Shown here: piece after piece, positions 6,204 to 50,121 of the stretch | Position numbering within the stretch: position 1 is the stretch's first letter | How the letters are laid out: each line of letters begins with the position of its first letter | Assembly (NCBI GenBank): GCA_010093605.1 | Contig: MU004183.1 | Span: 2,294,001-2,358,000, forward strand | Source of the DNA: Lophium mytilinum | Lineage: Eukaryota | Direction: 5' to 3' | Length of the DNA: 64,000 nucleotides | Program-made: the position numbers and the translations under genes | The notes under the pieces: generated by a model | Database searches by the model: none | What the model saw: the letters and a program-made list of their open reading frames with translations, nothing else | Told to the model about the DNA's origin: nothing

Positions 6204-6485
6204 ACCCCCTTGGATATTGTATCCTACGCAGCAGCGCTTCTGACTTCGTTCTTGCAGATTCGAAAGTGTTCCCGGGGTCCTCCCAACCGACGACCACACC
6301 TCACCCTCCCTCCGTCCCTCCCTCCTTACCGCCGAATACTCCGAACACCGCTACATCTTGCTATTCAAACAAGAGTCATCGCGCATCACCGTGGATACTC
6401 CCTCGACGCGCTGTATAACTTCATCTCCTCTCGCTTTCGTTTTCGTCAAATTCGTAACGTCGGCCTCGGAGTGCATCATACCTCT

Positions 6486-21126: not shown

Positions 21127-23088
21127 ATGGCTTCAATAATCTACCTATTCGTTGCGCTTTCTATTGTCTATGTCGTCTATAGACTACTTCAGGTCGGCAA
21201 GCGTGACCCCCGGATGCCCAAAGGTCCCCCTACGCTGCCGATTATAGGCAACTTTCATCAAATTCCGTCTACGGGGATGTATCGACAGTGCGTGGGCCTT
21301 TCGCCTTTTGAGGACATGCCAAATTGACGACACGTAGATTTCGAGAATGGGCCAAAGAATACGGTACAGTCTTCTCGCTCAAGTTCGGTCCTTCGAATAT
21401 TGTCGTGCTGTGCGACCGAGAAGCAATTCACGAGCTTCTCGACAAGAAGGGAAGCATCTACTCAGACAGGCCAAAGACGTATGTAGGCGATTTGTTGACA
21501 AGAGGGGATCATATTGCGATTTCTCAGGCGGACGGGTTGTGGAGAGAGAAGCGCAAAGTCATTGCACACAATTTCTCTCCAAAGATGCTTGACGAAAAGC
21601 ACTACAGGGTCCAGGAAGCCGAGTAAGTTACCTAGATTAGTCTAGTACGAATGCTCGGTTTGCATCTTAACAGGTCGCTAGAGGAATCGTCCTAATGAAT
21701 GACTTACTACGAGATCCTGATGGTTTCTTCAACCACATTCGCCGCTATACTGCTTCAGTTGCCGCGACGCTGGTGTTTGGCCAACGAGGCGCGACGTTCA
21801 AATCATTCTGGGCTCACGCAAGTTCACAAAATCTTTGCTGAGAACTAGCTGACCAGAAACTTAGGGTGTCTTCGACGTTATGGAAAGGGTAAGCCCAATC
21901 TATACACAAAACTAGCACCGCTAAACCGTGATATAGTGGACTGAAACTATGGAACCTGGCGCCACGCCTCCCGTTGATGAATTCACATTTCTTAAGTTTG
22001 TCCCAAAGCGATTTGCGCTTTGGAAGCGGCGTGCACTCAGAGCTGGAGACACCATGGACGCCGTCTGGACCAAGGCCAGACAGATTATCGACACTCGGAG
22101 AGAACAAGGCGAGAAGCGGGATTGTATCGCTGATCGTCTCATAGATGAGTACACCGAGAAAGGCTTTCCAATGTCTCAACATGCATTCAACAACCTGATT
22201 GGTGAACTGGTCGAAGGCGGAGCGGATACAACAGCTGCCCAGCTACTTACAATGGTCTTGGCTCTGGCAAAAAATCCGTGGGTCCAGAAGAAGGCGAGAG
22301 CTGAAATCGACCCTATCTGTGGCACTTCAAGATCTCCACGGTGGGGCGAAGACTTCCAGGAGCTGCCCTACATCAACGCAGTCATCAAAGAGGGCATGAG
22401 ATGGAGGCCAGTGTACGTGCTCGAACTCTTTCCAGTCGAATTCAACCATGCTAAATGATAGATAAAGGGCTGTGACAGCACTGCCGCACCGAGTCAGACA
22501 AGGTAAACATGCTCTGGGAGGCAGAACTGGTCGCAGACGAAGTTAACCATCTTGACCAGACGACTTTTACAAGGGAATGCTAATTCCCAAGGACACAACG
22601 ATTTTTATCCCCACCTGGGCGATTCATCACAATCCCGAGTTCTACGAAGACGACGAAGCGTTCAACCCAGACCGGTTCCTGGGCTACCCAAAACTAGCCA
22701 GCGAATACGCAGGCAGCGCGAACTGGAAAGGCCGAGATAGGTTCACCGCACCTCACGCTTAGGACTAACGCTAACTCATGTCAGCGACATACATCACTAC
22801 GGCTACGGAGCTGGTCGCAGAGTCTGTCCTGGAATGCATCTTGCCGAGCGCAACATGTGGCGCATCACTTCCAAGCTGCTTTGGGCGTTTGACATCTCCG
22901 AGCCGATTGATCCCGTCACCGGCAAGACTGTGACGTTGGATCCAGACGCTTACAATTCGGGCATTACTCAGGCCCCTTTGCCATTCAAAGTGCGGATAGT
23001 GCCACGCAGCAAGGAGCATGCCGCCGCTTTGCAGCAGGAACTGAAGTCGGCGTTGGACTTCTTGGCACCGTTTTCTTCGAAGGAGTGA
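21127..23088 (+). CDS. cytochrome P450 A, CYP619 (PatH/PatI)-like (multi-exon)
   Basis: TM anchor, PKGPPTLPIIGNFHQIP, MEPGATPPVD, I-helix EGGADTT, KEGMRWRP, FNPDRF, heme motif HYGYGAGRRVCPGMHLAERN. Confidence 0.92.
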
Positions 23089-23836
23089 GCGGCCATTCTC
23101 CGATTAGCGGTTCAAGGGTGCTTGCACAAGAATGAGCTTTCAATTTTCTCTCTGGTATAGTCTATCTCAACCTGTGACCAAGTGAGGCAGTTTGTCCCTG
23201 AAAGATTTCTTGATGGTTGAAATAGTGGGTTCATCTTACCTGAAGCCACGATTTCTTGTCGCTCCTGTGAATACATTTCAGTTCGAATAAGCTATCATCT
23301 CTTGGCAATGATTTGATAAGCCTCGGTGGTCCAGCAATTCAATGAACCGATGTCGGCTGCCTGCAGCACGTGAAGGTATTGTATTTGTAGGTTGCGTAGG
23401 ATCGACACGTCTAACCGCTGAGTTACGGTATGACAGCCCGACACTGGAGAGCCTGCTCGCTAGGCAATGTGATTGTGAGAGTGGATCATACCCAGTTACG
23501 CCAGGCCAAGAGGTTTCGAATTCAGCGCACGATGTCTTGCGGAGTAAAGACTTGATAGGGGAGACAATCCTGGGACATTATGCTGGCAGGCAAGCCTACG
23601 TTCGTCCATAGACCATGAGAGTCGCTGCTCTTGCTGCCAGTCACACAGTGCACCCACGAAATGTTTCATCTTTCAATGTGGTACTTAAATATTATTGTGC
23701 TCTCAGGATTAAGCTGTCAATACGCACAAAGCATGTTTTGCCGCTATGAATAGGCCTCCCAGCTTGTTCTCATAATCAGGGGGACATATCGGAGAGATTT
23801 CTCTCAGTCGCAAGGTATACGATCCAAGACAAAGGA

Positions 23837-25555: not shown

Positions 25556-26510
25556 GGTGTCTGTGGGTCCGAAATAAAGGTGGGGACGACTATACTTGGA
25601 TGAAGAAATCCGGGGAATGCAGAGCAGGGAAAGGACAAGGGGTCCAATATTATAGCAAGGCGTCTGCGAACTCATCTCGAACAAAAAGGCCCCACCTAAA
25701 TTAGCGCGGAGACGCCGCAGCCAGTGGGTAATTCCAGGATGGATTTCCTGTGGAAGAGACGAGGTTCTTTGGAACAGAAATACGGCGTAACTTCGACTCC
25801 AGTGGTGACGCCGCTAGGGGGGGCCGGCCTTTTTTCATCTATCCAGAATTCGGCGGAGCAACCTCGTTGATCTCCAAGATGTAAAATAGTATAATTTTTC
25901 GCAACATCGTTGGCCTGCCATGGCCAAGACGTCTTCGCCAGCGCTTAACTCAACCAAACATGCTCATGCCTGTAGAATTCGGCAAGAAGATAGGGCTCTT
26001 TCTAGGGGCACATTCGAAGTTGCGACGGGATGTGCAAGCCACCCTGGGTAACGGTCAGGATCATCAGGGAGATTCCGGGGTATATTGTACTTCGGTGCGG
26101 ATCACAAGGCTTCCTAGGAGCGGAGGGGAGCCTTGGTGGATATAGAAATGGGTGCTTTCAACACTTGAAATGCTGTTCGCTATGTGTGGTGCTGAAAACA
26201 GGTAGAGTTCAGGGGCTCGGAATAGGGCACGCGGGGATGCGTATTTCGCTTAGAATAGAGTATTTTCGTGTCACTTTTTTTCCTGCTCCGCGGAACGGTA
26301 AACGGGAGGGCACATAAAGGTCTGTGTTCGGAGATTCCGGTCGAATATTTGTCACAGATGTCGCAGTCGTCCGACCTAGAAGTCGACGAGATCGATTCTA
26401 TTTCCGTCCATTGCCCCGAATGGAGGTGTTTAAGAGTGACATTCTGACGTTTGTTGGTCCACAACACCACAATCTGGCCCCGGTAGGAGACATCATCAAC
26501 TCTGTCTAAC

Positions 26511-27622
26511 ATGGCTTCGCTTGCAGGCAAAGTCATATCCCTTACTGGCGCCGCTTCCGGAATTGGCCTTGCTACAGCCAAGGTGCTTTACGCCCGGGGA
26601 GCGAGCCTCTCTCTGTGCGACCTCCGCGAGGATGCTCTGGCGAAAGCAAGCTCCGCCATTTCCAGTTCTGCATCCGAGCGGCTGATCACCACAGCTGTTG
26701 ATATACGCTCTAGCGACCAAGTCGATGCATGGGTTGCAAAGACAGTCAAGCATTTCGGTCACCTCGACGGCGCCGCTAACGTGGCTGGTGTCATCGGCAA
26801 GCATTATGGAGTTCATGACATTACCGAGCTCTCCAATGAGGAATGGGACTTCATCCATGGCACCAACTTGACTGGTCTCTTCTACTGCGTGCGCGCCCAA
26901 TTGAAGGCTATGCGAGATGGGGGAAGCGTTGTTAACACATCGAGTGTGACCGGTCTCGAGGGCCATGCAAAGAATGGAGCATATTCAGCTAGCAAGTACG
27001 TAGATCCCCGATACAGATCAAAGTTTCCCAGCAATTCGTTGATCTGAAAAACTACTCAGGGGGTATCCCGGGACCACCACAGTGGTGTCTTGGAGTCCCC
27101 CAAAGAAGTGTCTCAAGCAATAGTACCTTTTACAAGAAATCAAATTGGGTTTCTTATTTCTGAAAGATTTGCTGACTTTGCCACCTTTAGACACGGCGTC
27201 ATTGGACTGACTAAAAGTGCGGCAAAAGAGGTTGGTAGCAGACGCATCCGGGTCAACGCCATCGCACCGTAAGCTCAACCCTTCCTTCAATCTTGCAAAC
27301 TATTTTGGCCATCCGGCACGCCTGATCCCGACTGCTGGGGCTGTATGTGATCCATCCAGCGTTGTCATGACCGCTTGTAGTTGCGTAAACGTTGTTCTGC
27401 ACCTAAAGCTAATGTACTCGTTATAGCGGAATCATTAATACTCCCATGATTCATTCATTTGGCGCTGTCGAATCTGGCAAGCTAGATGTATTTGCTCGAG
27501 TACCCATTCCAAGGGTATGCGAGCCTGAGGAAGTAGGAAATCTATTCGCCTTCCTGTTGAGCGATGACTCTAAATACATAACCGCATCGACTTACCGAGT
27601 CGACGGTGGTATGTGCGGTTGA
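26511..27622 (+). CDS. short-chain dehydrogenase/reductase 1
   Basis: TGAASGIG, DGAANVAG, YSASKHGVIGLTKSAAKE, IRVNAIAPG, YRVDGGM; two introns (~26995-27190, ~27269-27426). Confidence 0.92.
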
Positions 27623-27850
27623 AGATATATCAATAAAACTCGAAACTTGCGGTCACGTTAGGATTTGTAACACGTCATAGCATAACAGAGCTTTTCAAAC
27701 ATCACTGTCAGATGTGACTTCTGAGTTGACAGTGACCGTCAAGCAGTGATACTGTGGTTTCAGTATGTTTACTGAACTAACTCAGCCCCAATAGCTATTC
27801 TGAAGGCTAGTGCCATTGTACAGTTGTCTGGCTAGCGGAATCGCATCCCG

Positions 27851-29295
27851 TCAATCCAGAAATGCTTGGGGCACTTCTGGGCCCCAGACCGCCAAACCCT
27901 CATGGCCGGCTGGACCATACGCGAGGGGGGTTTCCTCATTCACCAAATCTCCATCCGCATAGTGCTCAACCATGAAACCGTTGGTATCCCACCAGTAATC
28001 GAAGATCTGTGATCCGAGGATATGTCTACCAACCCCCCAGACGGATTTGTAGCCTTTCTGTGCGAGCCATTGGTGTCCCAGAGCCTGAGTGTCAAAATCG
28101 TGGATCTCAAAGCTGCAATGATGGACATGTGGATCTGCGTCTGGACCCAGCGACGTGAGGAACATCGTGTGGTGATCTACCAGATCCTGACCACGATCGA
28201 TATGTGCAAACATGGCTACTAATCTGCGTTCCGGCTTGCCGTCTACCGTAGATTCGACAGGCACGTACAAAAGATCGGATGGTATGATATTGAAATTCTT
28301 CGTATAGAATGACATTTGTGCTTCGAAGTCTTTTACACAGAGTCCAAAATGACCCAACTGTTAAGAAGAAAGGTTAGAAAACTGCTCAGACGCCGGGGAA
28401 GAGGATGTTGCCATGCGAGAGTCGATTGCCGTACCTTGTATACCTCAGCTGGTCCGGGCTCAAACCTTTGGAATTGCTTCATTCGGTCTTTGGTAGACTC
28501 GTCATTAATCTTCAGCTTCCCAGGCATCTTTCCAGTTTCGGACTTCGATTGACCAAAGATAAAATTGACAGGAAATCCCTCAGGATCTTCCACGGAAACG
28601 ATATGGCCGCCTCCTGGAGCATCCGTCATTTCTTCCACGCCATTGGTGAGACACACAGTTCCGGGGAGTCTTGCGATTCTGAGATGAGGAGCAGCAGATT
28701 AGCACTCGATTTTGATTGTGCCGGCATTGTTCAAGGCATACTTCTCCAGCTCTCCATAGCTCTCCACCTCGAATGTCCCTCCAAGATATTTCTTAGGCCC
28801 CTGTTGCGCGTAATACACATACTGATCAGGTCCGTACCCTCGATACCACCGCTGGGTCTCAGTCTTCTTTACTACGTGCATGCCGAAGTCTATTAAGTAT
28901 ACAAAGCCTCAGCAATCTTGGAAGTACAAGCAGCGAATTCCGCCGGTCCTCTTATAAAGTGGAGTATTTGCTTACCCCTGAGAAAAGTCGTTATTTGCTG
29001 CAGATCAGGATGCTGATATCGCATGTGCGCGAGCTTTACCAGCCGGATTTGCTTCGAAGCCTCAACACCATTCGCTTTGCGCCAGGATTCCTTACTACAG
29101 CTCTCTGGGCCAACAGCGATATGATCGGGCATCGAGGTGCCTCGATTTGGCGACGGATCACGGCTCATAGTATGTCCCTAGTACCCATAAGCCAATAGGG
29201 TTCGATCGTTGAAACTCGCGACGTACATTCTCTCGTAGAGGCTTTACCTTCTCCTCGGTAAGGTCGTGCTTGAACTCGTTCAATGCATTAACCAT
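27851..29295 (-). CDS. two-domain VOC-fold extradiol dioxygenase, trihydroxytoluene-oxygenase-like
   Basis: LAHMRYQHPDL, DFG, YRGYGPD, DPEGFPVN; C-domain LGHFG, DHH, HVHHCSFE, WGVGRHILGSQIFDYWWD, VEHYADGD giving a 2-His-1-Glu metal site. The start at 29295 needs a 49-nt intron 29226-29178; alternative ATGs at 29168 and 29132. Confidence 0.88.
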
Positions 29296-29906
29296 TTTGA
29301 ACCACTGTGTACCGTGGCTATGGGGAGTGGTGGAAAGTTTTTTGGACAAGTCAGGCACTCAGCCTTGACGAGAGCTGTGTCAGATCCATACTTTACCTAG
29401 CTACCTGAAAGCTTTTATCAATAGATTAGAAGTATCTCGGTACTATCAGCAGGCATCTTGGCAAGAACTTCATGTCTTCCGGCCGAAGTAGTGCAGAGTT
29501 AGGCCTTCTCAGAAGATCATTGGTCCCTGTATTGATGCAGAGAGAATCCCGGCGTAGTTCGACCGGCGCAAGCTACTGGAGTAACAGCCGATCAAACCTT
29601 TCGACTCTGATTTTCATTGGCGAGCATGGCCTGAATGCGGACAGGCGGAGTGCGGTGTGGGGACCGGAGCATCTGCAACTTTTTGGAATTAGGCCGGTAG
29701 TCTGGAAAATTGCCATTTTGGGACCTTTAGCCGCTAGTCCTATACACACAACCATTCTGTAGAGGCTACGCCGTCTTGAGTGCTGCACCTGAAAGCCTCA
29801 AGTAGAGTTACTATTCTAGCATTTTGGCTCACTGGAAGGACAACAAGGGGATCATGTCTGGTCTTTTCCTCCAACGGCTGATTTAGGACTTGCTAGGCCC
29901 ACAGAA

Positions 29907-30396
29907 ATGACGAGCTTGAAACTGGACAGCAAGGTTGCCCTTGTGGCGGGCGCTTCCTCCGGCACGGGCCGAGCTACTTCTTTGAGCCCTCGCAAAAGCC
30001 GTTTCGGTTGTCCAATACCAAATTCGAGCAATCTTAATTTGACCGCACTAACCTATTGCTAGGAATATGGACGCATTGGTACTGTTATCAATTGCACTGG
30101 GTACTGGGCGTGTTCTGTCTATCCAGTGAAGAAGAAGATGCTCCCTGGAATGAGATTCGCGCCAGGGTTCTGGACCATGCCTAAGACTGGATGAATATAA
30201 ACTGTATTGCTCTGGGTACTGTCGATACCAGTATGGCCCGCGAGAAACTTCGAAGATGAAGAAAATGACGAAGGAGGCGACTTATTGGCCAAGAATCGGC
30301 ACCTCGGAATATGTTTCTCTGCTCTGAGGCGTCTTCGTGGATCACTGGCCAGGTCTATCCGTTGATGGTGGCATGACACTAGGTATTCCGCCCTGA
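29907..30396 (+). pseudogene. SDR pseudogene (internally deleted and frameshifted)
   Basis: MTSLKLDSKVALVAGASSGTGRATSL N-terminus, YGRIGTVINCTG remnant and MFLCSEASSWITGQ/SVDGGMTLG C-terminus within only ~490 bp; no YxxxK seen. Confidence 0.75.
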
Positions 30397-31039
30397 TCGA
30401 GTAACCAGCGTTAGCTAACGGGAAGATCCTACAGAGCACCAGAGGCTTAAGATCTTCAAAGGCCTTATTAGGCATAGGCTGGATCATTACATGCCGATGA
30501 CGTTGTCATTTCCTCCTCTACTATGTACGTGGATGTACATATGGAAAGTTTCATTGAAGATCCACGATCGATAGCTTCTACGTTTGCAAACTATCCTATA
30601 GAAGCCACTGCTCTCTTTTGAGTAGTAAGTGTGAATGGCTTCACTAAGATTTATCTTAGTATATCACGGGCTGTTGCTCAATGAAGTTAGTATATGCATA
30701 TGGAATCCTTGAGCATCCCGTATCAGATCCGCACAACTCGCTTCCCAAATCGGATAGCTTCTTAAATGGGGAGAAGATACTGCGTACCTAGGTATTATTG
30801 AACTCAAACTGAGGCCGCAAGCGGGTATGAAATTAGTCCATCCGCTCCATTCAAGTTCCATTACTCTGTCCGAGTCAGATTTGACGTGTCATAAATAATG
30901 CCTTAGCAATGGCTGTATAAATAGCTCATCAGTGTCAGCCGGAACTGATAAAGGGTTGAAGCACATTTCAGAAACGATTCCAACGTTCGAAAATCTTCTA
31001 AGCTGGAAACGAGTGAGGAGCTCTAGAAAAACCAACAAA

Positions 31040-31724
31040 ATGGCGCACGGGCTTAGCAAAGGCTGGATCCAAGATGAGGTATGTATACCCCTCCTAACGA
31101 GTCATGAACTATGGATGTTAATTGATCGTAGACCACGTATACCGATATAGACAAGGAGCTTAGTCTGTTGAGTGGTCCAAAGAGCTCGGTAGGTTCTTCA
31201 CCACGCCCACAAACGAAGACTTTAGACTAACGACTGCCTTGAAGGATCACAAGCCAGAGTTTGCAAAAGAAGAACAAGAGATTCTCGAGCAGCTGTACAA
31301 GGGTTGGCTGGGTTATTGGAACAAAGAGTCCATGCACGACCCGGGTGCCAACCAGTCGCGCCGGTTCTACGACTTCGAAGAAATGCTGAGCTTCGACATG
31401 TTTGGCACATCAGGGCGAGGCAAGTTCAAGGAACACTTTGAGAGCGTCTTCCCATACTATGTGGACGGGCAAATGGAGTACAAGGACTTGGAGATTGTCG
31501 TGCTCTCGCCGACCCACGCATTTTCCACCGGTTCTCAGCACACATGGGGCAAAGCGGGAGGCGACCCATTCAGCATCACCTTCCGCAGAACCGGTATTGC
31601 CAGGAAGAAGGACGGACAGTGGAAGTGGATTCATGAGCATCTTTCATTCCCTGTCAACATGGCCACAAGGCTGGCGGACTTCAATGAAGAGACGGCGGCG
31701 TTGGACTCGTTCAAGGTCCAGTGA
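31040..31724 (+). CDS. SnoaL/NTF2-like fold protein (three exons)
   Basis: MAHGLSKGWIQDE|TTYTDIDKELSLLSGPKSS|DHKPEF...; C-terminal FRRTGIARKKDGQWKWIHEHLSFPVNM typical of SnoaL_3/DUF4440 proteins. Confidence 0.8.
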
Positions 31725-33025
31725 TTGGCTCCCGGCTAGCACGTTATAGAGCCTAGCTCTGTAGGTCTATACAAACTCACGAGTTCCGTATAGAACTTCA
31801 AAACCTCAACTCCGAGAGCTGCCTCACTGGGCCTAGGAGCTCGCAGTTCGAAGCTAAGAGCCGCTTATCAACTAGCAGCTCTTACGCTTGTATCACGGTG
31901 TCATAAGAGCTGAACACCTATGTAAACACCTTCATTCACTTTGGTATAAACACATGTTCAATTCAATCTATCCTCTGACGTCTTGGTGATTCCGCCCGCA
32001 TTCAAGGATTAAAGTCGTACGTGTATGCAACGAGCATGGGGGAGAATAAATATTCCAGGGTAATAAGACATGTACCTATCGTCAAGACTAATATGATCGA
32101 CGTAAACACTGGACGAAAAGAGCTGTCTCTTTTGGCAGGGATTATGTGCTTGCGAAAGCCACAGAAAGTGCCATGCACCGAGGACTAAAAACAGGATTGT
32201 TTTAGGAAAATCTCCCAAATCGGCACAACTTTGCCATTTGCCAAGGCATATCCAATTGTAGATATCCTCTTTTCCCCGGACACGCAGCCAATGGAAGCCA
32301 CTTCAAAACCAATCCAGGTCAGAGGATGCGCCTGGGCTCGGGCCAGGCCGATTCGGCCGGCCAATATGTCATGTTCTTCTCGTAGCCGAAGATTATGGAC
32401 ATCACAGAGTTGGCCTAAATCCGGAGCGTATAGATAGACTAGAAGAGGTTGGGAGAAAGTTTCCCGTCTCTTTACATTTCTGGAACGTTGGAAGACAGGA
32501 GTTTCTATGGGTGTCGCTAGCAAGGGCCACCCCTGTTGCTGTACCGCCCCGGGCACCTTTAACGCTCTATTTCCAGATCTATACTAGATATATTTACGGG
32601 ACATGGATTTCTTAACGGGATATAGATATCTTAAAGGGCTATATGCACCTTATAGGGTTGTAGAAGTTTACATAGACAGCGAAGTATACTTAGAGCCTTC
32701 ATTAACTAATAATAGGTTTCTACGCTAAGCGAGTGACGTGATAATTTTATGAAGTCATAATTTTCGGCTCCGAAAACGCGTGATATATCGGCCGGTCGAA
32801 TCGCCTACCCCATGTACCCTGTGTTGTAGATTGGCCGACGATGAATCTGTCCGGGAAGGGGTCTCAGAGTCTCTTTCGGATTTGCAACGGTTCGAACGGT
32901 AATATGCAAGAAGAGTCGTGCACATACAGATATATGCAAAGTTATTGTTCCAACTAAGACATGGCCTTCTTTGACCAGTATTCTTCGTCCTTGCATTAAC
33001 AGAGTCAACTTCTCACATCCCTTCA

Positions 33026-33551
33026 ATGGCCTCGCCCATGAAAAAGTTCAAAGCCAGCGAGGTCGTGACGCACAAGCAAAAGGAGAATTTGTATCTTCTT
33101 ATTCATGATAAGGTCTACGACGTCTCGAAATTCATCGACCAACATCCGTGAGCGCACCCGGCACCATTCTAGCCATTGATTTGCTAAAATGTTCTCATGA
33201 TATAGAGGCGGGCAGTCAGTGCAACTCGACCAAGGTGGGTTCGATGCCACTGAAGCTTTCGAGGAAGTTGGCCATAGCGATGCCGCAATCGAATTCATGA
33301 AGACCTTGCAGATTGGAGTCTTGGATCGCCAGGTAAGGCGCACTCTACATGCAAAAAGCTGGTTTGAATTCCACTTAACAAATCGGATTCCCTAGCCTGG
33401 AGACGAGAAGATCTTGGTTTCGTCAGGAAGCGCGTACAAGAATTATACAAAGGCCCCCAGCAACCCCAGCCTGTGGGGATCGTTGCGTTTTCTCCTTACT
33501 TTTGTGGTTGCATTGGCAGTCTTCGCAGCATGGACAGGGGTTCGGAGATAA
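33026..33551 (+). CDS. microsomal cytochrome b5 with C-terminal membrane anchor (three exons, missed by the ORF track)
   Basis: LYLLIHDKVYDVSKFIDQHP|GG, DATEAFEEVGHSDAA (both axial His), tail LRFLLTFVVALAVFAAWTGVRR*. Confidence 0.92.
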
Positions 33552-34254
33552 GCTCGCTTCAGACAGCTGTGCTATTCACACGCTCGACAAACTCCAATGT
33601 AATCTGTGTGGTGGCATCCTGTTTCACGGCGGGACAAAGCCAGTAAAGATGCATACCCTCTGTGTGAGCAGTAACCGGGCAGAGCAGGTTACGGACAAAA
33701 GAACAGCATAACGAAGAAGTCACATTGCAGCAGGAATGTTAGGAGCTGGGAAGTGTCGGCAATGTACGGAATTAGTGGGGATTAAGCTAAGGGTGCCTGC
33801 AACAACCAATCTTGAGTGCGTGACTGGTCAGGTAGCCTGTCCAATGATGTACAGGGAGAATCTGAAATTACCCCGAAGCTGATGATGAGTAAGCTAATAC
33901 TTGTAAACACTTCTCGGGTGAACATTCACACCATTAGCAGCAGGGCCATGAAATAGAGTACGCATAATTTTCCGCACTCAGTCCGCATTAGCTGTCACCG
34001 GATTCTCAGGTGTAATTACGACTGAAGGGAAGAAAGGTTCCAGCAACTGCGTCACCTCCACTGGACTCCTGCCAAATATGTCTTTCGTCCGGCAGAGCAC
34101 CCATTCATGCTTTTGGACCCTTTACAGATTATCTTCACTATAGCAGTATCTCATCAGGCTGTGCAAACTGTCTGCAATATCTGAAGTATCTGTCGCAAGG
34201 TTCTGTCTTGTATTGCCACAAATCTTTCATCTTCCGCAGAGGTTCAACGTCAAA

Positions 34255-35231
34255 ATGTTCAAAAGAAAGGTTCTCACAGTAACAGGCGCTGCATCTGGCA
34301 TTGGCAGGTCCACCGCCGTGCGGCTAGCAAAACTAGGTGCCCACGGCCTAGCGCTCAGCGACGTCAACGAGAAGGGTATTCTGGAGACCGCGAAACTCTG
34401 TCAGCTTCCCTGTGTGCTTCCTAGGGACCATTGACTAACACTGACAGGCGAGGAGCACGGCTCCTCCGTTACGACTCGAGTAGTCAACGTCTCAAAGGTG
34501 GATGATGTCAACTCATGGATTGGAAAAGTCTACAAGCATTTCGGAAGACTTGATGGAGCCGCGAACGTGGCCGGCGTCGCAGGCGGGGATGGTACTACGA
34601 CAATAGCCACAATTGTACGTCGCGTCCTATGTTTGCATTTGGATTATCGGAGCTCACAAAGGTTTAAAGGACGACAGAGATTGGAATCGCACGTTGAACA
34701 TCAACCTCAACGGAGTCATGTATTGCATGAGGGCACAACTCCCTATCATCACTAAACCAGGCGGATCCATTGTGAATGTTTCGAGCACTTCCGGACTGAG
34801 AGGGCTCCCACACAGCGCAGCATATGCTACCTCCAAATTTGGAGTCATAGGCTTGACCGAGTCTGCTGCCGGCGAGTTCGGGCGCGAGGGAGTGCGCGTC
34901 AATGCCATTTTACCGTGCGTGTCCTTTCGGTCTGTCCCCGTTATGATGTTGCCTGGCTGACGACTTTGCAGAGGGCCGGTTGACACGGCAATCTTCAGAG
35001 ATGGTGAGGCCAAGGGGCTGTTTGACTCTAAGGTAATGGGTGGTACAACACTCCTTGGCCGGATGGGTCATCCTGATGAGGTCGCAAAAGTTCTTTGCTT
35101 CATGTTAAGTGATGAGGCGTCGTTCGTAACAGGAGGTATGTTGACGGTCTCTCTTAAATGGGCGAGTAAAGCAGTACTGACAGTAATGTGCAGCTCATTG
35201 GACGGTAGATGGTGGATATTCTTCGTGTTGA
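34255..35231 (+). CDS. short-chain dehydrogenase/reductase 2
   Basis: TGAASGIG, DGAANVAG, YATSKFGVIGLT, VRVNAILPG, LGRMGHPDEVA, WTVDGG; four GT-AG introns. Confidence 0.92.
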
Positions 35232-35659
35232 TATGATGGCGAATTCAGAGGACGCGCAAGATTTGCTACGGGATGGTGCTTGACGTGTTCTGTAGCGGAT
35301 CTCAACTTTGACAGTGCTCCCCTTTGACAATTATCATTCCAAGCAAGCACTTGCCTTACACCCAGTCCTCAACGATGATTGTGACAATTTTGCGGGAATA
35401 AGGTATTGCGTGGTCAACTTTCTAGGGATTCCCAAGTCAATCGCTTATGTATGGCTTCTTCTCACGTAACAATTGCTTATCATCGCAGCCAATTGTCTCA
35501 ACGCTTTCCTGCCGCGCCGAATAAGCTCACGATTTTTGGTCACATGAATTTTACGTACTAGACTACCCACATTCACAGTCAGGACTTCAAAAAGAACCCA
35601 GCAATAACGGCCTCCGCTTCTTTGATTGCTCTAACGAGTCAACAGCGTGAAAGCTTGAA

Positions 35660-36876
35660 CTAGTAGGCGACGATAGACCGGGATTGATATGGCTCCTCCA
35701 AGTATTGAACCTCCTCTTCTGTAAGTTGAACTTGCAATGCCAGCAGGGATTCATCTAGTCTCTCTTTCGAACTCAAGCCCAATATTGGATTCCCCCCTTT
35801 CCGCAAAACCCAAGCAGTCGAGATCGCAGCCATAGGGACCCCTTTTTTCACTGCCAGCTCTTCCACCCGATTCACAATCGTTTTTTCTACCTCCTCCGCG
35901 CCTGTTGGAAGCCTGAATTTGGCCGTCTGGCCTCGTTTAGTCACCAAACCCCAAGGGCGCGCAAGAACGCCCTGGGCGACCGGAGACCAAGGAAGAATCC
36001 CGATTCCCGCATAGGCACAGTACGGGAGCATTTCGCGCTCTTCTTCGCGGTACAGCAAGTTCATGTAGTTCTGCATACTGATAAACTTGTGCCAGCCATT
36101 CTTCTCTGCGACCGACTGCAATCTCTGCAACTCCCATGCTGCCATCTGTCAAGTCACATGTCAGCGCGCAGGTAATATCGCTCACCCAACTGGAAAGCGA
36201 ACAGACATACCGAACTTGCCCCTATATACCGGACCTTGCCACTCTCCACCACGTCGTTTAGAGCGCGCATGATCTCTTCGTAAGGAACGTCTCTATCTAA
36301 CCGATGGATCTGGAAGACATCGATGTATGTTCCCAGTCTTTCTACGCACGCATCCACTGCGTCAAGAATCTTTTTCCGGCTGAGGCCAACTCTATTCACC
36401 AAGGGCCCATCATTGGCCATGCACTCCGCTAGAGGAATCTGACTGCCATCTTGACTCACACCGAAGTACGACTTGGTGAGAATGACGACGTTCTCACGGG
36501 GAATCTTGTATTTCTTCAGGGCTTTGCCGACGATGCGTTCGCTTTCGCCGTGGGAGTATATGTCGGCCTGTGTTCCGATTAGTCTCAGTGAGTGGCTGCA
36601 AGGTAGGAGCTGCCGACTGACTGTGTCCCAGGTATTGATTCCAAGTTTGTAGGCGTGCTCTATAAGGGGCAGTGCTGCTTCCTCATCTTGTATCCATTCT
36701 TCCCACTGACTGCTGCCGAAAGAGAGAGTTCCGAGAACGATCTTGGAGATTTTCAAGCCTGAATTGCCTAGACTGGACGCGCAGACTACGGATCAGCGCC
36801 ATGTTCCGGGGAGCGTGATTGCTGGATCGTACCGAGTGTACTCCATCTGTTGCTTTGTGGAGGCTACAGTGGACAT
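35660..36876 (-). CDS. aldo-keto reductase, aryl-alcohol dehydrogenase-like
   Basis: MEYTR|LGNSGLKISKIVLG, WDT|ADIYSHGESE, GLSRKKI, YIDVFQIHRLD, GKVRYIGASS, MQNYMNLLYREEEREM, PWSPVAQG. Confidence 0.93.
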
Positions 36877-37672
36877 CTTGGCTCCTAATGCTTTGGGAAG
36901 ACATAGTTAGTCAATGATATGAGCCTAGATTCTATCACGGTCATGACAGACACCGAGTTGACGAAACTTACTCGACGGGCCCGGAAATGATCTTGATGCC
37001 CTAGGCGATCGGTGATCTAGGGGCTATTTTCTTTCTGCGAGGTAGCGGATGCACTCGATAGCAATGAGCTCCTGCTCCCGATTATACGCTTCGATCTGCG
37101 CGCGCTGGTAGAATTGCTAATTTATAGCTTGCAATAGCGGACCTGGGCGTTTGTCGAATAAACGAGTATTAGGCTAGCGATATCCTCCTTCTCTTTTAAC
37201 AAAAAGGGAAGATGATCATTGACTGATCGTCGAAAATAAATCCATAAACCGCCTTCGCGGGTAGGTTAGCAGTAATATTGCTGATAGACCTGGGAGAAAT
37301 TCGTCCGCTCCTTCCTAGCCTATCTCTCTCAAAGTATTTCGTGTAACCTGATTGCTCCCCGCCTACAAGGTACAGAGCACTTGTCACACAGACGACTTAA
37401 CGTTCCGGGTCATTTGTGGGGTAGTGCGGAGGTGAAAGAGAAAGGGATTTGTTGCCCATCTGTCCGCCTTGCCATGGGCTAAATCACGCCGGGGTCGCCA
37501 CTAGACAATAGATGAAATTAATAATAATAAGAACCTGGTGAACATTCAAAGACAGTCCGGCCTGCCATATCATAATTATAAGCTTATAGCACAGTACTTC
37601 ACCGAGGCTTAACTCTCAAAACCCCAGTGTTCATTGTTTCCATCTCTCTTGCAGCTGTTTCTCGTCACCAAC

Positions 37673-39782
37673 ATGGCTCTCAAAAATGCGATGGCCAGTT
37701 TCCACCACACTATGGGCGAAACTCCCTGGGTTAAAGCTGGTTTGGTGGTTTTGGTGCTTTATAGCATCTACCGGATTCTTCAAATTGGTAAACGAGACAA
37801 GCGCATGCCTCCGGGGCCCCCAACAATCCCATTGCTTGGTAATCTCCATCAAATTCCTATCACAGGGTTGTATAAGAAGTATGCAGTACCATTCGTCAAG
37901 TGCGCAATGGTAGAGTAGCCGGCTAATTCATGGTAGGATGAGGGACTGGGGTGAGAAGTACGGGGGCATATACTCGCTGAAGTTCGCGTCTTCCAATGTC
38001 ATTGTCCTATACGACCGCAAGGCCATCCATGAGCTTGTTGACAAAAGGGGATTGCTCTACGCCGAACGACCACACAGTTATGTCACCAACTTGGTGACAC
38101 ATGGTGACAGTCTAATCTGGCAAGACCATCATGAGAAGCAGAAAGTAAAACGCAAGATTACTACACACAACTTCTCGGTTCGTTGGCGATTTCCAATGTT
38201 AGGAAGCGGGCTACCACTGACGTAAATGATCAGCCATTAATTCTTGATGAAAAGGTTGCGCCAGTGCAGGATGCCGAGTAAGCTGACTTTCTTCAGCCCT
38301 GAGTCTATGCTGTTGCGGCGGGTTTTGGTTATTTAACCCCCTTAGCTCGTCACCTGCTGACACTATTATTCGACAGAGTCACGGTTTTGCTGAACGACCT
38401 GCTGGAGAGACCACGAGATATCTACTACCACATGAGGCGATTGACTTCGTCTATCGCGACTATTCTTGTGTTTGGCCAACGCGCAACGACGTATGAGGAC
38501 TTCTGGGGTCACGTAGGCTCGCATCTTCCCCTGTGTGCCTATTAATATCTAACGGGAAATAGTGTGTGTACGACGCCTTGGACCGGGTACGTTAATGCGC
38601 TTGCCAACCTGAAAGCTGATGCTAACAAGGTCACTCGCTTAGTTTGGTGAAGCACTCGAGCCTGGTGCCAACCCACCAGTGGATGAGTTTCCTTTTTTGA
38701 AGTACATTCCCCTCTTTCTGGCACCGTGGAAAAGACGCGCCATCTATGCCGGAGATGTCATGAACAAAATCTGGGCTGAGGCGCGCAAGCGTGTTGATGA
38801 TCGACGGGCGCGGGGCGACATTCGTACCTCTCTTGGTTCGCTGGCTGACAAGCTTCTGGACGAGTATGCGGAGAAGGGAACGAACCTTGGAAAAGATGAG
38901 TTGGATCATTTCTTCGGATTGCTGGTTGAAGGCGGTGCCGAAACTACTTCCTCGACCATGCTGACGCTCGTGCTGTGTCTCGCCTTGAACCCTCGAGTCC
39001 AGATCAAAGCCAGGAAAGAGCTGGATGCTGTGTGCGGATCGGAACGGTAAGTGTCTGCCCGACGTCGAATTCGGCCGCAGAAGTCTTTTAACACGCTGTT
39101 AGAATGCCAGAGTGGTCTGACTTTGCTCGGCTCCCATACATCAACTCCATCATTAAGGAAGGCATGCGGTGGCGCCCAGCGTGAGTTTGACACAGCAGAG
39201 ACTGCTAATGAATGCTAAAGAGATGTAGCGTCCCTCTTGGCATCCCGCACCGCGTCGCTGCGGATGACTACTACGAGGGCATGTTGATCCCCAAGGACTC
39301 GACCATCTTCATGCCCACCTGGGCTCTTCAACACGCCGAGCATCTTGGCTACGACGAGCCGTATGCCTTCAAACCCGAGAGGTACGCAAAACACACGAAA
39401 CTGGCGAACGACTACGCGGGAGGCGCAGATTACAACAATCGAGATAAGTATTGACTGGCCTGGATACTCTGGACGTTTAGCTGACGGTTTCGCACATCAC
39501 TATGGATACGGAACTGGGCGCCGCATGTGTCCTGGGATCCACCTCGCGGAACGGACTCAATGGCGCATTGCAGCCAAGCTGCTGTGGGCATTCGAGATCC
39601 TTCCCGGAGTGGACAAGACGACTGGAAAACCGGTGAACTTGGACCCGAACGCGTACGTCGAAGGTCTTCTCCACGGGCCAGCGCCTTTCGAGGTCATATT
39701 CAAACCGCGGAGTCAGGCGCATGTAGACGTAATAACACGCGAGCTGGCCAGCGCCAGGAAGTTCCTCGAGCCATATGAGTAA
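37673..39782 (+). CDS. cytochrome P450 B, CYP619-like, paralogue of P450 A (multi-exon)
   Basis: PPGPPTIPLLGNLHQIP, LEPGANPPVDEF, EGGAETT, KEGMRWRP, FKPERY, HYGYGTGRRMCPGIHLAERT; shares intron positions with P450 A. Confidence 0.92.
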
Positions 39783-41127
39783 GGAAGGGGAACATTCCCA
39801 CTAGCGAGGCCAGCAAGTTCCTCGTAGAGAGATCCAGCTCTCTAGGCCTGAGCCAGTCATGGTCATCTCTTGGCCTATTGAACTTAGTTTGGCGCAGATC
39901 GGCGAGATGATACATCCAAGAGTAGCTAGAATACTCTGGAACAGTCGATACTCGACTTCACCAAGACTATCGAATTTGGGGTTAAACACTGACTGTCTGA
40001 TGCTGACTCCCGTGGTGATTCCATGCGGTGCCCCGCAGCAATCAGGCATGCAACCTTCTCCCTAGCTTGTTCATGATGGATGCTGGTGCGTGTGAGGTGT
40101 ACGGTGTGAAGTGTGCGTGAAGATGACCCGTAATCCACCCGGAGTCATTGGCTTCGAAGTTGACGCTTGCAGGCCCCACGGATGAATTGCGCTTGCTACC
40201 TAGTGTTAGCTCGTTTTGCATTACGGTCGACATTGATTTCTTTCCTGCCCAGCACGCTTACTCGGCACGGGTATCTTTCTAATCTGCTACGGTCAGCTGG
40301 TTCCCTTGGGATACTTAGACATCAAACAATACAATCCTCTGCCACCCATAGTTCCACCGAACCTCATCACCGCCATTGCGGTTTTTGCCGCAGGGAATTA
40401 GAGTTGTTCCAGCAGACAGGGGAGCTGAGCATCCCCACGGGGAAACGTCAGGGTTCCCCGCAGAGCTTCAGGCTGAGACGATTTTGGTTGGTCCGCTAAA
40501 ACGCCCGGTAGAGTGAAAGAGGGTCGGTCCCTACGAAGATCCCGCGTTCCTCAATCAGCTAGGCTATATTCGACTAGCTGGGTACTCGGACCTCACACGA
40601 CACGTGTCAGGCACGTTGCATCGTGGTGGATGTCTTCTAGCTTTCTCCTTATCTTGACTACTAACCAGCCAGCCTTCAACTCCGCTGCATCAACGCGACC
40701 TAGGAATCGCACATGCGGCTCCATTCGGTGCTCGGCTGGACCGTCGACGTGGCTGTCATGGAGACGTTGAAAAACCTAGTCTGTCTCTAGGTAAGAGGAG
40801 CCGTCGGTCGGTTTGGGGCTTGCTAATGGGTAGTTCCCCCGTAGAGCTGCTGCAACCTATCGGCCAGATGATCGCTGGCCGCCAAGGGCCGCATGACCTG
40901 GGAAAGGCGCAAGTTCTGGGTAAGCCTCGAGCTTTTCCAATTAAGCATACATGCTTTCTGCCGCGGAGCCTTCCATCTGCGGGGACTTCAAATTCGACCA
41001 CTCCCCCGTCTGCACCGTCCCGAGACTCTCTCGTCTGCTCGCAGTCGCGCACCAGGCCCGCCGCAACGGACACGACCAGCCAGATTGAGCACCTTTGCAG
41101 CGCCATTCTCCGTGGCCCCGATCCAAG

Positions 41128-43859
41128 ATGCAGACAGGTACCCAGGATGCGATCGCGGTGATGACTGCCAGTGTGTCGGATCTGTCTTGTGGGCCGTGCC
41201 GGAGGTGAGTTGACGACCGCGCAACCTTCGCCCTTCAAATCCTCGCGGCCATGTCGCTAACATGCGACATGACAGACGAAAAGCGAAATGGTGAGCACTG
41301 GCCTTCAAGAAGTCTCGGTATGTGTCTAGAGAACGACAGTAACACCCGTATGACAGTGATCGCACACTCCCATCATGTCGGCTCTGTCTCAAGGCCACGG
41401 AGCCATGCATCTACCCACTCAAACGTGGCCGGCCTGGGCCCAAGACCGGTAACTCTCCGTCAGGTATTGGTGGTACGAACCGATTGCTTACATCTTCGCG
41501 ACAGGCTCGACGCAGAAGAGGCCACGGCGGGCAAGGAAGACCAGAACCCCAGATCCACGCGCACCATCACGGGTCGAAGGGCAAGCAGGTTCGTCCACCG
41601 AGGCTCCAAGTGACCGCCGGTCTGTTGGCGTGGAGAGCTCGGTGTTTTCTGATGCTCAGACCGCGGGAACCGACCTCTCGTCGCAGTCATTTCGACCCGA
41701 ACCGTCAACAGCTACGACTTTCAGCACCTACGCTGACACGTCAAATGCTTCCAAGCGTGCGGCTGCAACCCAACCAGTACATGAAGGCGCTCGGCGAGTG
41801 AGTCCGACGGGCGGAGGCGATGCACCTGTCTTCTGGGACCCCCTCGTGCCGGATCCCTTCAATGGTCCTACGACCCATTCAGACGCGATGCTGCATACGT
41901 ACCACTCCCTCAACATCTCCCCGAACACGCTACAGCAACTGTGAGTATAGTTTTAAGTTGAAATTCTGGGTCTAATCTTAGACCCGCTCGCACAGTTCCT
42001 GGATGCAAGCTAATGACTGTCTAATCAGTCTCGACTCCTATTTTGCAAATATGACGACGTTTTCCCTCTTTCACCAGCCCACCTTCAATGAGAAGATCCG
42101 GACCATCGGGCCTTCACTCTTACTCAACGCACTCCTGGCATCCATGTTCTCCTTTTCCGGCCGGTTCGAGATGCAAGACACAAGCTCCACGCAAATGGAT
42201 CCGGCCAACGAACTCCCGAGTGACATCCCGTGCGGCGACCACTTCCACCAGCTCGCACTGCGTTTTGAGGAGGAGATGCTAACCATTCTCTCGGACGAGA
42301 CGCCACCCCTGGCCTTTCTCCAAGCCGTCGTCCTGACGACCTTCTTCCAGCTGACCAAAGGCGTGCACGGTCGCGCCTGGCGATGGCTCGGAACCTGTAT
42401 CCGGGTCGCGTACGAGCTGAACTTACATCTCATCGACTCGAACTCGCCTGAGGAGCACGTGCCGTCAACGGCCGAGGAACTGCGGGCGTGGACTGTGGCC
42501 GAAGAGGGTCGCCGCTGCTGGTGGGCCATCTGGGAAATGGATGCTTTTGCCAGCACCATCCGGCGTGTGCCCACCGGCATTAGCTGGCCGCGGAACCAGA
42601 CATATCTGCCTGTCGAGGATCGGCTGTGGTTCGAGTCGAAGTACCACGCGAGCTGCCGCCTCCCAGTCAAACCATCTGATCGCTGGAAACGGCTCCAAGA
42701 GCGTGGCAACGAGTCCCACGCAGCCTGGTACATCGTGGTGACTTCGCTGATGCAAGAGGCACAAGTGCTGGCAAATATGGAGGGATGCCTGGAGCGGGTG
42801 CATCCCTCGACGTCGCCGTTTGCGCGTCGCGGCAGCCACGAGAGCAGTGTGGCCGACGACCTGAAGGTGATTGCACACGCGTTGCAGTGCACGTTATTGG
42901 CACTGCCCCAGGTGTTGCAGTATCACAACGAGCCGTTGAGCTTTGTGTCGCTGGACTCGTCCGAGATCGGTGGTACTCGAAGACTGCACAGTGCCAAGTA
43001 CAGCATCTATCTCATGGCCCAGATGACGCGCTTCATGATCTGCCACCACTACACGTTTGGTGGGCCGTCTTGCGCCTCGGATAGGATCGCTGGGCCGCCT
43101 GAAGACCACCCCGGCTTGGGCTTGCTATGCACGACGCGGCCGCCCAACGCAAACGGCCTTGAGCACTACGCCGAAGCGGTCGACAACATTGTGCTGCTGC
43201 TTCATCGCAGCTCCGCCGTACACATCCGCTACGTCAACCCCTTTCTCGCCACTATCATCTGGCTCGCGGCCGCGGTGCAGCTCATGCACAAGAAATTCGG
43301 CCCTTCAACCGCCAACCGCGACTTGGTTGACGTTAAGCTGGACGTCTTACGCCTTACCTACAAGCAGTTTGTCAAGTTTTGGAGCGCGCCCATCGGTCTC
43401 CTCCATGCCCTCGACTCGTTGGAAACGCACTTCGACCGCCTTATTGATCCCGAGTCTGTAAGCCGTTTACCCGTCCAGCATCGCCGTCGAGCTTCGGCAC
43501 TCGACAGTCTCGATGCTAGCCTCCCTGACGCGTCGACATCCCACGGCCCCGGATATAAGAGCAGCCGGACCCAGCCCAACCTGACCGGCTCCGGGGTTAA
43601 TCCCATGATGGTGTCTGACAAAGGTGGTTCACGTCCCATGGATGGTAACGAGAGCAGCAACAACGCCTTAGGCGATCATGCAAACCCTCATTTACCTACG
43701 AACCATCCGATGCGCATACCACCGAGCGCGGACCCGATGTTGGACGACATGAACTTTGCAGCAGTAGACTTTGATTTCGGCGACGATTCCGACCTTCCCC
43801 TGTGTCTGGACGGCTTGCTTTTCGGGTCCTATGCTGAGGGCACCGGCCCGGTTGGGTGA
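41128..43859 (+). CDS. Zn(II)2Cys6 transcription factor with fungal-specific middle domain
   Basis: Spliced zinc cluster CGPCRR|RKAKC|DRTLPSCRLCLKATEPC; middle region AWRWLGTCIRVAYELNLH..EEGRRCWWAIWEMDAF. Confidence 0.9.
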
Positions 43860-49812: not shown

Positions 49813-50121
49813 GGTGGTCTGGAGGGGATAGTAGTCGAGCCTGGGTAAGAGGGTGCAGCTGGGTATCAGTGAAGGGACAGTATCATTCTGAAGTCAATAG
49901 AGAAGATTACCTCCTCTCCATTATCTAGAGCATCGGATGACTTATCAACGTGGTGCGGTCGAGTCTAGACGTCATGACACATTATGGATCTCGTCTGCGG
50001 TAGTGACTGCTGTAGACCAAAGAGACTACACACGAAACTCAACCACCCCACATATATCTCTGGTGTTTTGACCACGCAAAGGTTTAATACACTCCGCCTC
50101 CTCCCACGCCGCCAGGACACC

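Follow-up and report, generated by a model that had tools for sequence, protein, structure and literature searches.

Gene content of the locus

Analysis of a stretch of 64,000 nucleotides from the genome of Lophium mytilinum (assembly GCA_010093605.1, contig MU004183.1, positions 2,294,001 to 2,358,000 of the forward strand; hereafter the window) reveals ten contiguous genes at positions 21127–43859 of the window. They encode two cytochromes P450 (P450 A and P450 B), a transporter of the major facilitator superfamily (MFS), two short-chain dehydrogenases/reductases (SDR1 and SDR2), an extradiol dioxygenase of the vicinal oxygen chelate (VOC) type, a SnoaL-like protein, a cytochrome b5, an aldo-keto reductase (AKR) and a Zn2Cys6 transcription factor. 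The initial annotation of this region had described it as a synthase-free candidate cluster for the import, hydroxylation and meta cleavage, or the detoxification, of a methylphenol-like compound. Scanning of stop-to-stop open reading frames (ORFs) against Pfam recovers all the claimed families with their order and strands: P450, Sugar_tr MFS, adh_short, Glyoxalase/VOC, SnoaL_3, Cyt-b5, adh_short, Aldo_ket_red, P450 and Fungal_trans. The scan comprised 300 of the 316 ORFs of at least 45 residues in 20600–44400; the remaining 16 fall in 42897–44487, and only the three among them with at least 97 residues were also scanned. For the rest of the window 134 further ORFs outside 20600–43081, all but one at least 97 residues long, were included, which brings the total to 434.

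Gene models were built from RNA contigs of two public runs, from spliced alignment to homologues and from reading of the splice sites. The first run (X3) yields spliced contigs without mismatch to the window and is from the same organism, the second (X4) spliced contigs of a relative at 85–99% identity; both were treated as RNA because their contigs are spliced (neither run is on record as RNA). All ten models give open, intron-bearing frames over a span of 22.7 kb, as had been claimed, and the limits of the cluster agree exactly with those first proposed, position 21127 being the ATG of P450 A and position 43859 the stop of the Zn2Cys6 factor. The genes, and a decayed SDR gene among them, are as follows:

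21127–23088, plus strand: P450 A; 8 exons, 533 residues; Pfam p450 in four ORF pieces; X3 contig at 22793–23406
23837–25555, minus strand: MFS transporter of the sugar-porter type; 4 exons, 508 residues; Sugar_tr at E 1e-18 to 7e-29
26511–27622, plus strand: SDR1, a classical SDR; 3 exons, 252 residues; adh_short at E 7e-36; both introns in X3 and X4
27851–29295, minus strand: two-domain VOC extradiol dioxygenase, annotated as 'trihydroxytoluene oxygenase'; 5 exons, 389 residues; Pfam Glyoxalase; four introns in X4
about 29906–30393, plus strand: decayed SDR (relic), head to head with the dioxygenase gene; pieces in three frames with stops
31040–31724, plus strand: NTF2/SnoaL_3-like protein; 3 exons, 191 residues; SnoaL_3 at E 2e-9 and DUF4440; two introns in X4
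33026–33551, plus strand: cytochrome b5; 3 exons, 134 residues; Cyt-b5 in two ORF pieces; both introns in X3 and X4
34255–35231, plus strand: SDR2; 5 exons, 252 residues; adh_short in four pieces; X4 joints near 34615/34673 and 34911/34972
35660–36876, minus strand: AKR, aryl-alcohol-dehydrogenase-like; 4 exons, 345 residues; Aldo_ket_red at E 2e-32 and 3e-23
37673–39782, plus strand: P450 B; 9 exons, 539 residues; spliced model equal, residue for residue, to the annotated L. mytilinum protein P0214
41128–43859, plus strand: Zn2Cys6 transcription factor; 5 exons, 816 residues; Fungal_trans at E 7e-18

Seven of the ten genes are transcribed and spliced: X3 contigs cover P450 A, MFS, SDR1, b5 and P450 B, and X4 contigs cover SDR1, the dioxygenase, the SnoaL-like protein and b5, with splicing as modelled. 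The displayed RNA joints show three coding introns and one leader intron for the MFS gene, two introns for SDR1, four for the dioxygenase and two each for the SnoaL-like protein and b5; a further 17 joints and 79 pieces were not displayed, so that the introns of P450 A, SDR2, AKR, P450 B and the factor are without displayed RNA support. X3 does not cover 27720–31054 (the dioxygenase, the relic and the 5' part of the SnoaL-like gene) and X4 most of the MFS gene, gaps that are uninformative on expression. The models of SDR2, AKR and the factor were finished by reading of splice sites, with partial or nil RNA support; in AKR an extra intron (36568–36621) was found by frame and motif. In P450 A the frame is open only with one GC-AG intron, at 21818–21864. 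For the MFS gene, a single X3 contig of 2324 nucleotides without mismatches shows all three coding introns and the intron in the 5' leader; the latter measures 47 bases (26043–26089) and lies within the promoter region common to SDR1. Another X3 contig, at 40009–40625, lies inside the 1.3-kb gap between P450 B and the factor, where no ORF with a Pfam match is present; it may correspond to a long 3' or 5' untranslated region or to a non-coding transcript.

Two divergent gene pairs are present as first described, MFS/SDR1 with the common intergenic region 25556–26510 and AKR/P450 B with 36877–37672. The absence of a synthase likewise stands: polyketide synthase (PKS), nonribosomal peptide synthetase, terpene synthase and prenyltransferase families are without match in the 64 kb, and core scaffold enzymes in general are absent among the 434 ORFs scanned, a search that core enzymes of novel families would escape. 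The core scaffold enzyme by which a secondary-metabolite cluster is recognized is thus not found within the window. In all its main points the initial observation of the locus is correct; what was concluded from it fared less uniformly, as described below.

The extradiol dioxygenase and the company of its homologues

An annotated L. mytilinum protein (P0279) agrees with the dioxygenase model at all 389 residues (100% identity), and the Mytilinidion orthologue is 96% identical. In Ascomycota this family has many members, with 937 homologues found, and the best 120 of them are 63–96% identical. The enzyme had been likened to the DntD type of extradiol dioxygenases; its extradiol nature is borne out by its two domains, its metal and catalytic residues and its fold, and the public annotation is named after DntD. 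Its sequence shows a distant relationship to those of BphC and homoprotocatechuate dioxygenase (HPCD). In the alignment with BphC (1dhy) the GHF, HHT, HH and E positions pair with identical BphC residues, and the metal site (two histidines and a glutamate) as well as the catalytic histidine and tyrosine are retained, with roles assigned after those of the aligned BphC residues. Residues H224, H283/H284, H300/H301, Y342 and E352 are invariant across 12 fungal homologues. Two tandem VOC domains are seen in the model of the 96% identical Mytilinidion orthologue, which is of moderate confidence (pLDDT 65.5) and whose fold matches are BphC, HPCD, 1,2-dihydroxynaphthalene dioxygenase and HsaC, over 308–350 columns and with E values of about 1e-17 to 1e-14. 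The protein scores far below the NCBIfam equivalog cut-offs of HpaD (54.5 vs. 321.4 bits) and BphC (43.6 vs. 366.5 bits) and gives no match to the NCBIfam models of catechol 2,3-dioxygenase and HsaC, and for this reason it is considered as a subfamily of its own. From these resemblances it is predicted to be an Fe(II)- or Mn(II)-dependent type I extradiol ring-cleaving enzyme.

We further analyzed the genes beside dioxygenase homologues. Among 80 metagenome loci fetched, the 46 of at least 6 kb were counted (loci L001:1-11095, L006:1572-15373 and 44 others, with fungal and bacterial homologues), shorter ones being excluded. Within 4 kb of the homologue, a gene of the FAA-hydrolase family occurs in 24 of the 46 loci and a FAD_binding_3 monooxygenase in 22; one or the other is present in 35 loci and both in 11. 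At the two closest loci (75% and 77% identical) the hydrolase lies within about 1 kb and the monooxygenase 2.3–7 kb off on the same locus; one of these two, which is fungal, additionally holds an Amidohydro_2 decarboxylase-like protein, a carboxylesterase and an MFS transporter. Mis-fused public models reflect similar neighbours, since the dioxygenase is joined to a monooxygenase in Fusarium and to an SDR or an MFS protein in Aspergillus. Based on these neighbours, the family is best read as the ring-opener of a hydroxylase/dioxygenase/C–C hydrolase module, a reading with which the DntD-derived name agrees. The module has the appearance of a pathway that is conserved widely but has yet to be characterised, and its substrates may be of the resorcinol or orcinol type. 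Other fused models, of a P450 with a transcription factor (Fusarium P0203 and P0212) and of an SDR with a VOC protein (Aspergillus P0075 and P0076), were considered and set aside, for they are not orthologues of the factor or of SDR1 of the window (no match or 28% identity).

The nearest bacterial counterpart would be the DntB-DntD-DntG system for 2,4-dinitrotoluene, which consists of an FAD monooxygenase, the trihydroxytoluene oxygenase and an isomerase/hydrolase, DntD acting between the other two. The window dioxygenase resembles this system in being a two-domain extradiol enzyme with a DntD-derived name (a likeness drawn by annotation and not from the DntD sequence), and its fungal and bacterial homologues lie mostly beside an FAD monooxygenase, an FAA-family hydrolase or both. 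At the locus of the window, in contrast, neither partner is found and two P450s stand where the flavin hydroxylase would be expected.

Fungal pathways characterised so far employ intradiol, cupin, homogentisate-type or DUF3500 ring cleavage together with flavin hydroxylases, according to three papers (PMC12420386, PMC10512348, PMC8896014), which also present extradiol cleavage as barely characterised in fungi, the VOC-type enzymes in particular as ones that 'warrant further investigation', and the complete fungal meta pathway as unresolved. The fungal VOC-type extradiol dioxygenases are called uncharacterised (PMC12420386). No described cluster of the kind found here was met in the literature searched, a search outside which most subscription journals fall.

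The P450 pair, the transporter and the accessory proteins

P450 A and P450 B are paralogues, 51% identical and with the majority of their intron positions in common. Both translations contain the hydrophobic N-terminus, hinge, ExxR motif and cysteine loop of class II microsomal P450s; the Pfam p450 profile (462 positions) is covered from 1 to 441 in P0214 and from 1 to 436 in the orthologue of P450 A, and the nearest solved relatives are the microsomal CYP17 and CYP2. Aligned end to end, P450 A is 83% identical to Exophiala viscosa P0255. As no protein identical to P450 A appears among 109 homologue matches, its gene may be missing from the public annotation. The splice pattern of P450 B is reproduced by its black-yeast orthologues. 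In the case of the MFS transporter, three exon pieces match Sugar_tr at 67.9–101.5 bits (cut-off 22.3); the related Fonsecaea protein, 58–60% identical to it, reaches 249.1 bits with TIGR00879 (cut-off 237.8), a comparison for which the window protein was scored piecewise only. The transporter is hence of the sugar-porter rather than of the drug-efflux type, as the import first proposed would have it; sugar-porter MFS proteins are mainly importers, and it is from this habit of the class that import would follow.

The closest named relatives of P450 A, P450 B and the MFS transporter are all from black yeasts (Herpotrichiellaceae), so that the three have one phyletic pattern. A tree was calculated from 72 sequences, made up of both window proteins, 68 of the 109 matches (named and of at least 400 residues), the P450 portion of a fused model and an outgroup. 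Six Chaetothyriales sequences form the sister group of P450 A plus one metagenome sequence (SH-aLRT 98), three form that of P450 B (SH-aLRT 100), and the other L. mytilinum and Mytilinidion resinicola P450s included fall elsewhere. Orthologues of A and B lie 1–6 genes apart, as judged from locus tags and accession numbers only, in six species: Capronia epimyces, Exophiala viscosa (two assemblies), E. xenobiotica (two assemblies), E. sideris, Fonsecaea pedrosoi and F. nubica. The B-type P450 gene of three Fonsecaea species is adjoined by, or fused with, an MFS gene whose product matches that of the window over its full length. Therefore the two P450s and the sugar-porter MFS constitute a recurrent unit of black yeasts, with identities to the window proteins of 80–83% (A), 74–77% (B) and 58–60% (MFS). 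Either gene transfer or loss elsewhere may have produced this common pattern; high identity alone proves nothing on transfer, since the clearly old dioxygenase is also 71–76% identical to Exophiala proteins. One further black-yeast candidate, a fused model of Cladophialophora immunda (P0127), was rejected: its C-terminal 508 residues match nothing in the window and its MFS part is 29% identical. None of the genes CLAIMM_03042 to CLAIMM_03046 is listed in the two text supplements of the C. immunda toluene paper.

The initial annotation had associated the P450s with the CYP619 enzymes PatH and PatI. Six of the 109 listed homologues of P450 A do bear the automatic names 'patI' or 'yanC' (from PatI and YanC). 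These names fit a CYP619 link, of which they are no test, and P450 A can be called CYP619-like by the names of its homologues alone, membership of a CYP family requiring more than about 40% identity to named members. The names also suggest an explanation in which the locus is a tailoring set for a secondary metabolite, its scaffold coming from a synthase elsewhere in the genome or from another organism, for example a quinol or epoxyquinone that derives from 6-methylsalicylate, as in the case of patulin, terreic acid or yanuthone. Indeed, the patulin pathway has a comparable set, in which a pair of P450s is accompanied by an SDR-type dehydrogenase, an alcohol dehydrogenase, an MFS transporter and a Zn2Cys6 factor (PMC12720273), and PatH/PatI as well as AtE/AtG represent a related P450 pair acting on small methylated phenols (PMC5794859, PMC12720273). 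In terreic acid synthesis 3-methylcatechol is converted to a methyl-benzenetriol by the P450 AtE, whose output is raised by a small helper protein (PMC5794859); the b5 of the window is loosely comparable to this helper. On the other side, the window has no PKS, 6-methylsalicylate synthase, decarboxylase or other core enzyme in its 64 kb, and no cupin epoxidase; the epoxidases/oxygenases PatJ and AtD of those pathways are cupins and not VOC enzymes (PMC12720273). Moreover, the window has a true cytochrome b5 as its helper and a sugar porter as its transporter, and the conserved neighbours of the dioxygenase family are catabolic. We hold a tailoring function to be distinctly unlikely. Catabolism or detoxification is favoured over biosynthesis because of the missing core enzyme, the importer-type transporter, the catabolic company of the dioxygenase elsewhere and the dedicated factor; for a catabolic route, the AtE reaction is a precedent of another kind, since it shows that a P450 can lead to the substrate class of the dioxygenase.

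The remaining proteins are less informative individually. SDR1 has levodione reductase as its best solved relative (E 5e-24), and its nearest solved relatives act on cyclic ketones and alcohols. The SDR2 model contains the glycine-rich loop, the YxxxK motif and a VDGG end, and is 35–42% identical to SDR1. The SDR relic that had been noted is present but faint: its pieces resemble the glycine-rich N-terminus, the mid-part and the VDGG end of an SDR, and tblastn gives weak, colinear matches, to SDR2 at E 0.003 (1-kb subject) or 0.025 (all intergenic stretches) and to the SDR part of the fused Aspergillus SDR-VOC model P0075 at E 0.001–0.003; no Pfam match is obtained at E 0.01. Cytochrome b5 has, in a model supported by RNA, the HPGG motif, the second histidine and the hydrophobic C-terminal membrane anchor of tail-anchored forms; a b5 gene within a fungal gene cluster is uncommon. 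The best solved relatives of AKR are DepB and an aryl-alcohol-dehydrogenase-like protein (both at E 1e-16). The Zn2Cys6 motif of the factor, C-X2-C-X6-C-X6-C-X2-C-X6-C, is read from the DNA across two introns that lack RNA support; being split in this way it was missed by a plain motif search, and the Fungal_trans domain scores 65.2 bits (cut-off 23).

The SnoaL-like protein belongs to a small and sparse family, with 24 homologues found. Those at 56–67% identity come from Kockiozyma, Ilyonectria, Colletotrichum, Neofusicoccum, Verticillium, Fusarium, Bionectria, Diplodia and Zopfia. Its model (pLDDT 84) gives generic NTF2-like fold matches only, and searching a protein atlas with it returned generic SnoaL_3/DUF4440 clusters only; the hydration or cyclisation step initially assigned to it is pure conjecture. 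On one contig of Zopfia rhizophila, a SnoaL-like protein (KAF2179300) and a related P450 (KAF2179307) are seven accession numbers apart, which suggests that these two gene types may also be associated in another, distinct way.

Several of these resemblances would also fit a cluster that degrades a terpenoid from the bark or resin of conifers, alicyclic or aromatic in part, e.g. an abietane resin acid or a monoterpene. Hydroxylation would then fall to the P450s with b5, ketone/alcohol steps to the SDRs and AKR, isomerisation or hydration to the NTF2-like protein, and the opening of a ring that is aromatic or has been aromatised to the dioxygenase. Levodione reductase, cyclohexanol dehydrogenase and carveol dehydrogenase are among the solved relatives of SDR1, the NTF2-like fold resembles putative ketosteroid isomerases and LinA, the solved structures nearest to the P450s include CYP17 and ferruginol and sugiol synthases, and the steroid ring-cleaving HsaC is among the fold matches of the dioxygenase. 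Moreover, the host fungus presumably lives on conifers, as the abstract of a study on bark-dwelling mytilinidioid fungi indicates. All these resemblances, however, are shared by whole broad families and lack specificity, and the context of the dioxygenase elsewhere points to small hydroxylated benzenes. The black yeasts, which share the P450 module, are to our knowledge not resin-acid degraders. We consider a terpenoid substrate quite unlikely, and the least probable of the explanations given here.

Interpretation of the locus and its surroundings

We tentatively favour, with a confidence somewhat short of an even chance, a reading of the locus as a lineage-specific mosaic cluster for the catabolism or detoxification of a phenolic or other hydroxylated aromatic compound, composed of at least two parts of different history. 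The first part would be a module for uptake and double hydroxylation, formed by the two paralogous microsomal P450s and the sugar-porter MFS. The second would be a resident extradiol dioxygenase of the trihydroxytoluene-oxygenase type, whose ancestral SDR neighbour has decayed and whose usual partners are not here; b5, the two SDRs, AKR, the NTF2-like protein and the Zn2Cys6 factor occupy the space between the parts. In such a cluster the MFS transporter would import the compound, and P450 A and P450 B, receiving electrons from the general P450 reductase with the clustered b5 assisting, would add two oxygens, leading to a hydroquinone or benzenetriol and/or an oxidised benzylic methyl group. 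AKR and the SDRs would then adjust alcohol, aldehyde and ketone states, the dioxygenase would open the ring beside a hydroxyl group, and further breakdown would be left to unlinked genes elsewhere in the genome. We infer the substrate, the order of the steps and the action of all ten genes in one pathway.

The arrangement itself speaks for a cluster of this kind: ten intact genes occupy 22.7 kb flanked by housekeeping genes, four of them form two divergent pairs, and the set has a factor of its own. Fungal aromatic catabolic clusters (for 3-oxoadipate, gallate/tetrahydroxybenzene, nicotinate and quinate) comprise a Zn2Cys6 factor, an MFS permease, oxygenases and dehydrogenases (PMC10832562), and the layout of the window is alike, also in having no core synthase. 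The locus can be described as a variant of the fungal catabolic gene cluster that offers a good experimental handle, a single pathway from the P450s to meta cleavage being a candidate for testing.

A number of results weigh against this reading. Conservation of the genes as one unit, which the initial annotation implied, does not hold, given that three different phyletic patterns are seen: the P450s and the MFS transporter have the black-yeast pattern in common, the dioxygenase has a second one and the SnoaL-like protein a third, sparse one. Unlike the window, Capronia epimyces, in which the P450 pair is clustered, shows no dioxygenase orthologue among the best 120 of 937 matches, and the nearest black-yeast relatives of the SnoaL-like protein are merely 41–42% identical. 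An exhaustive search found no AKR representative more than 65% identical; the ten representatives looked up are metagenomic or from Hypocreales, a basidiomycete or Candida, and none of the ten is from a black yeast. Conversely, a close relative of P450 A or B, the SnoaL-like protein, b5 or AKR is found beside a dioxygenase homologue at none of the 46 metagenome loci, the sole P450 matches there being 30–37% identical, at three loci.

As to the pathway, the FAD monooxygenase and FAA-family hydrolase partners are absent from the window in the Pfam scan, and the alpha/beta-hydrolase, FAA hydrolase, aldehyde dehydrogenase, hydratase and aldolase families have no Pfam match in 20600–44400. A complete meta-cleavage pathway is therefore not encoded, because the cluster contains no hydrolase, semialdehyde dehydrogenase, hydratase or aldolase that would process a ring-fission product. 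The cresol, orcinol or toluquinol proposed as substrate is a guess. Finally, eight promoter regions (5991 bases) were screened for CGG/CCG pairs with spacers of 0–13 and for 7- and 8-mers; no common motif was found in this search, which has low power, the best enrichment ratio being 3.1 on 2 sites.

Much of this would be accounted for if two or three unrelated units were simply adjacent, a P450/P450/MFS module for the hydroxylation of xenobiotics, perhaps with b5, AKR and an SDR, lying beside the stump of an older hydroxylase/dioxygenase/hydrolase catabolic cluster that has kept no more than the dioxygenase and a dead SDR. The dioxygenase would then work with unlinked genes or be on its way to being lost, and would not be fed by the P450s. 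The difference in phyletic pattern between the parts, the lack in the window of the partners that the family has within 4 kb at 35 of 46 loci, the decay of the SDR beside the dioxygenase and the want of a common promoter motif are all in line with such a situation. Against it, the dioxygenase gene is intact, its product shares 96% identity with that of Mytilinidion, and a relative transcribes it and splices it correctly; it lies in the middle of the set and not at its edge; and the whole stretch has a single factor and a single transporter to serve it. Mosaics are, besides, frequent among fungal catabolic clusters. It is the phyletic patterns, the missing hydrolase, the 46 loci without a joint occurrence and the missing promoter motif that keep the mosaic cluster a tentative preference and make chance adjacency, although doubtful, its most serious competitor.

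A bolder form of the mosaic reading, which we consider rather improbable, is that black yeasts and conifer-bark fungi share, perhaps by transfer, a P450 route from alkylphenol-type compounds to benzenetriols, which in the lineage studied here has been wired to a VOC extradiol dioxygenase. If true, this would be the first eukaryotic pathway in which P450s with a dedicated, clustered b5 replace the flavin hydroxylase before a meta-type ring fission. As a set for testing, the locus is compact, a single factor being joined there by both P450s, the b5 and the intact extradiol dioxygenase. Each of the two modules is of interest in its own right. The hydroxylase/dioxygenase/FAA-hydrolase module is conserved from bacteria to fungi, and we found no paper on its fungal members; the module of two P450s and a transporter is common to a bark fungus and to black yeasts, which are known for living on aromatic pollutants. 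Either of them could explain how fungi cope with plant phenolics or aromatic pollutants.

Concerning the surroundings of the cluster, the genes on the left flank are HRI1, a methyltransferase, a kinase, a RING protein and SHMT, and those on the right flank a kinase, an RCC1-repeat protein, COG3, an AAA ATPase, NST1 and a Ras GTPase. The initial annotation had placed the cluster between the housekeeping genes SHMT and FMP25. SHMT is confirmed on the left; FMP25 is not the immediate neighbour on the right, because a protein kinase gene separates the factor from the RCC1-repeat gene that was probably meant:

44798–46657, minus strand: protein kinase gene, direct right neighbour of the factor, interrupted by an assembly gap of 215 N at 46365–46579
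48037–49893: RCC1-repeat gene (probably the FMP25 of the initial annotation), beyond the kinase gene

To the left of SHMT (5259–9265 and 11333–16600) there are long ORFs without Pfam match, for example at 6489–7631 and 14707–15738, both on the minus strand. The G+C content is 47–50% in the middle of the cluster (28001–38000) and 53–60% across most of the flanks.

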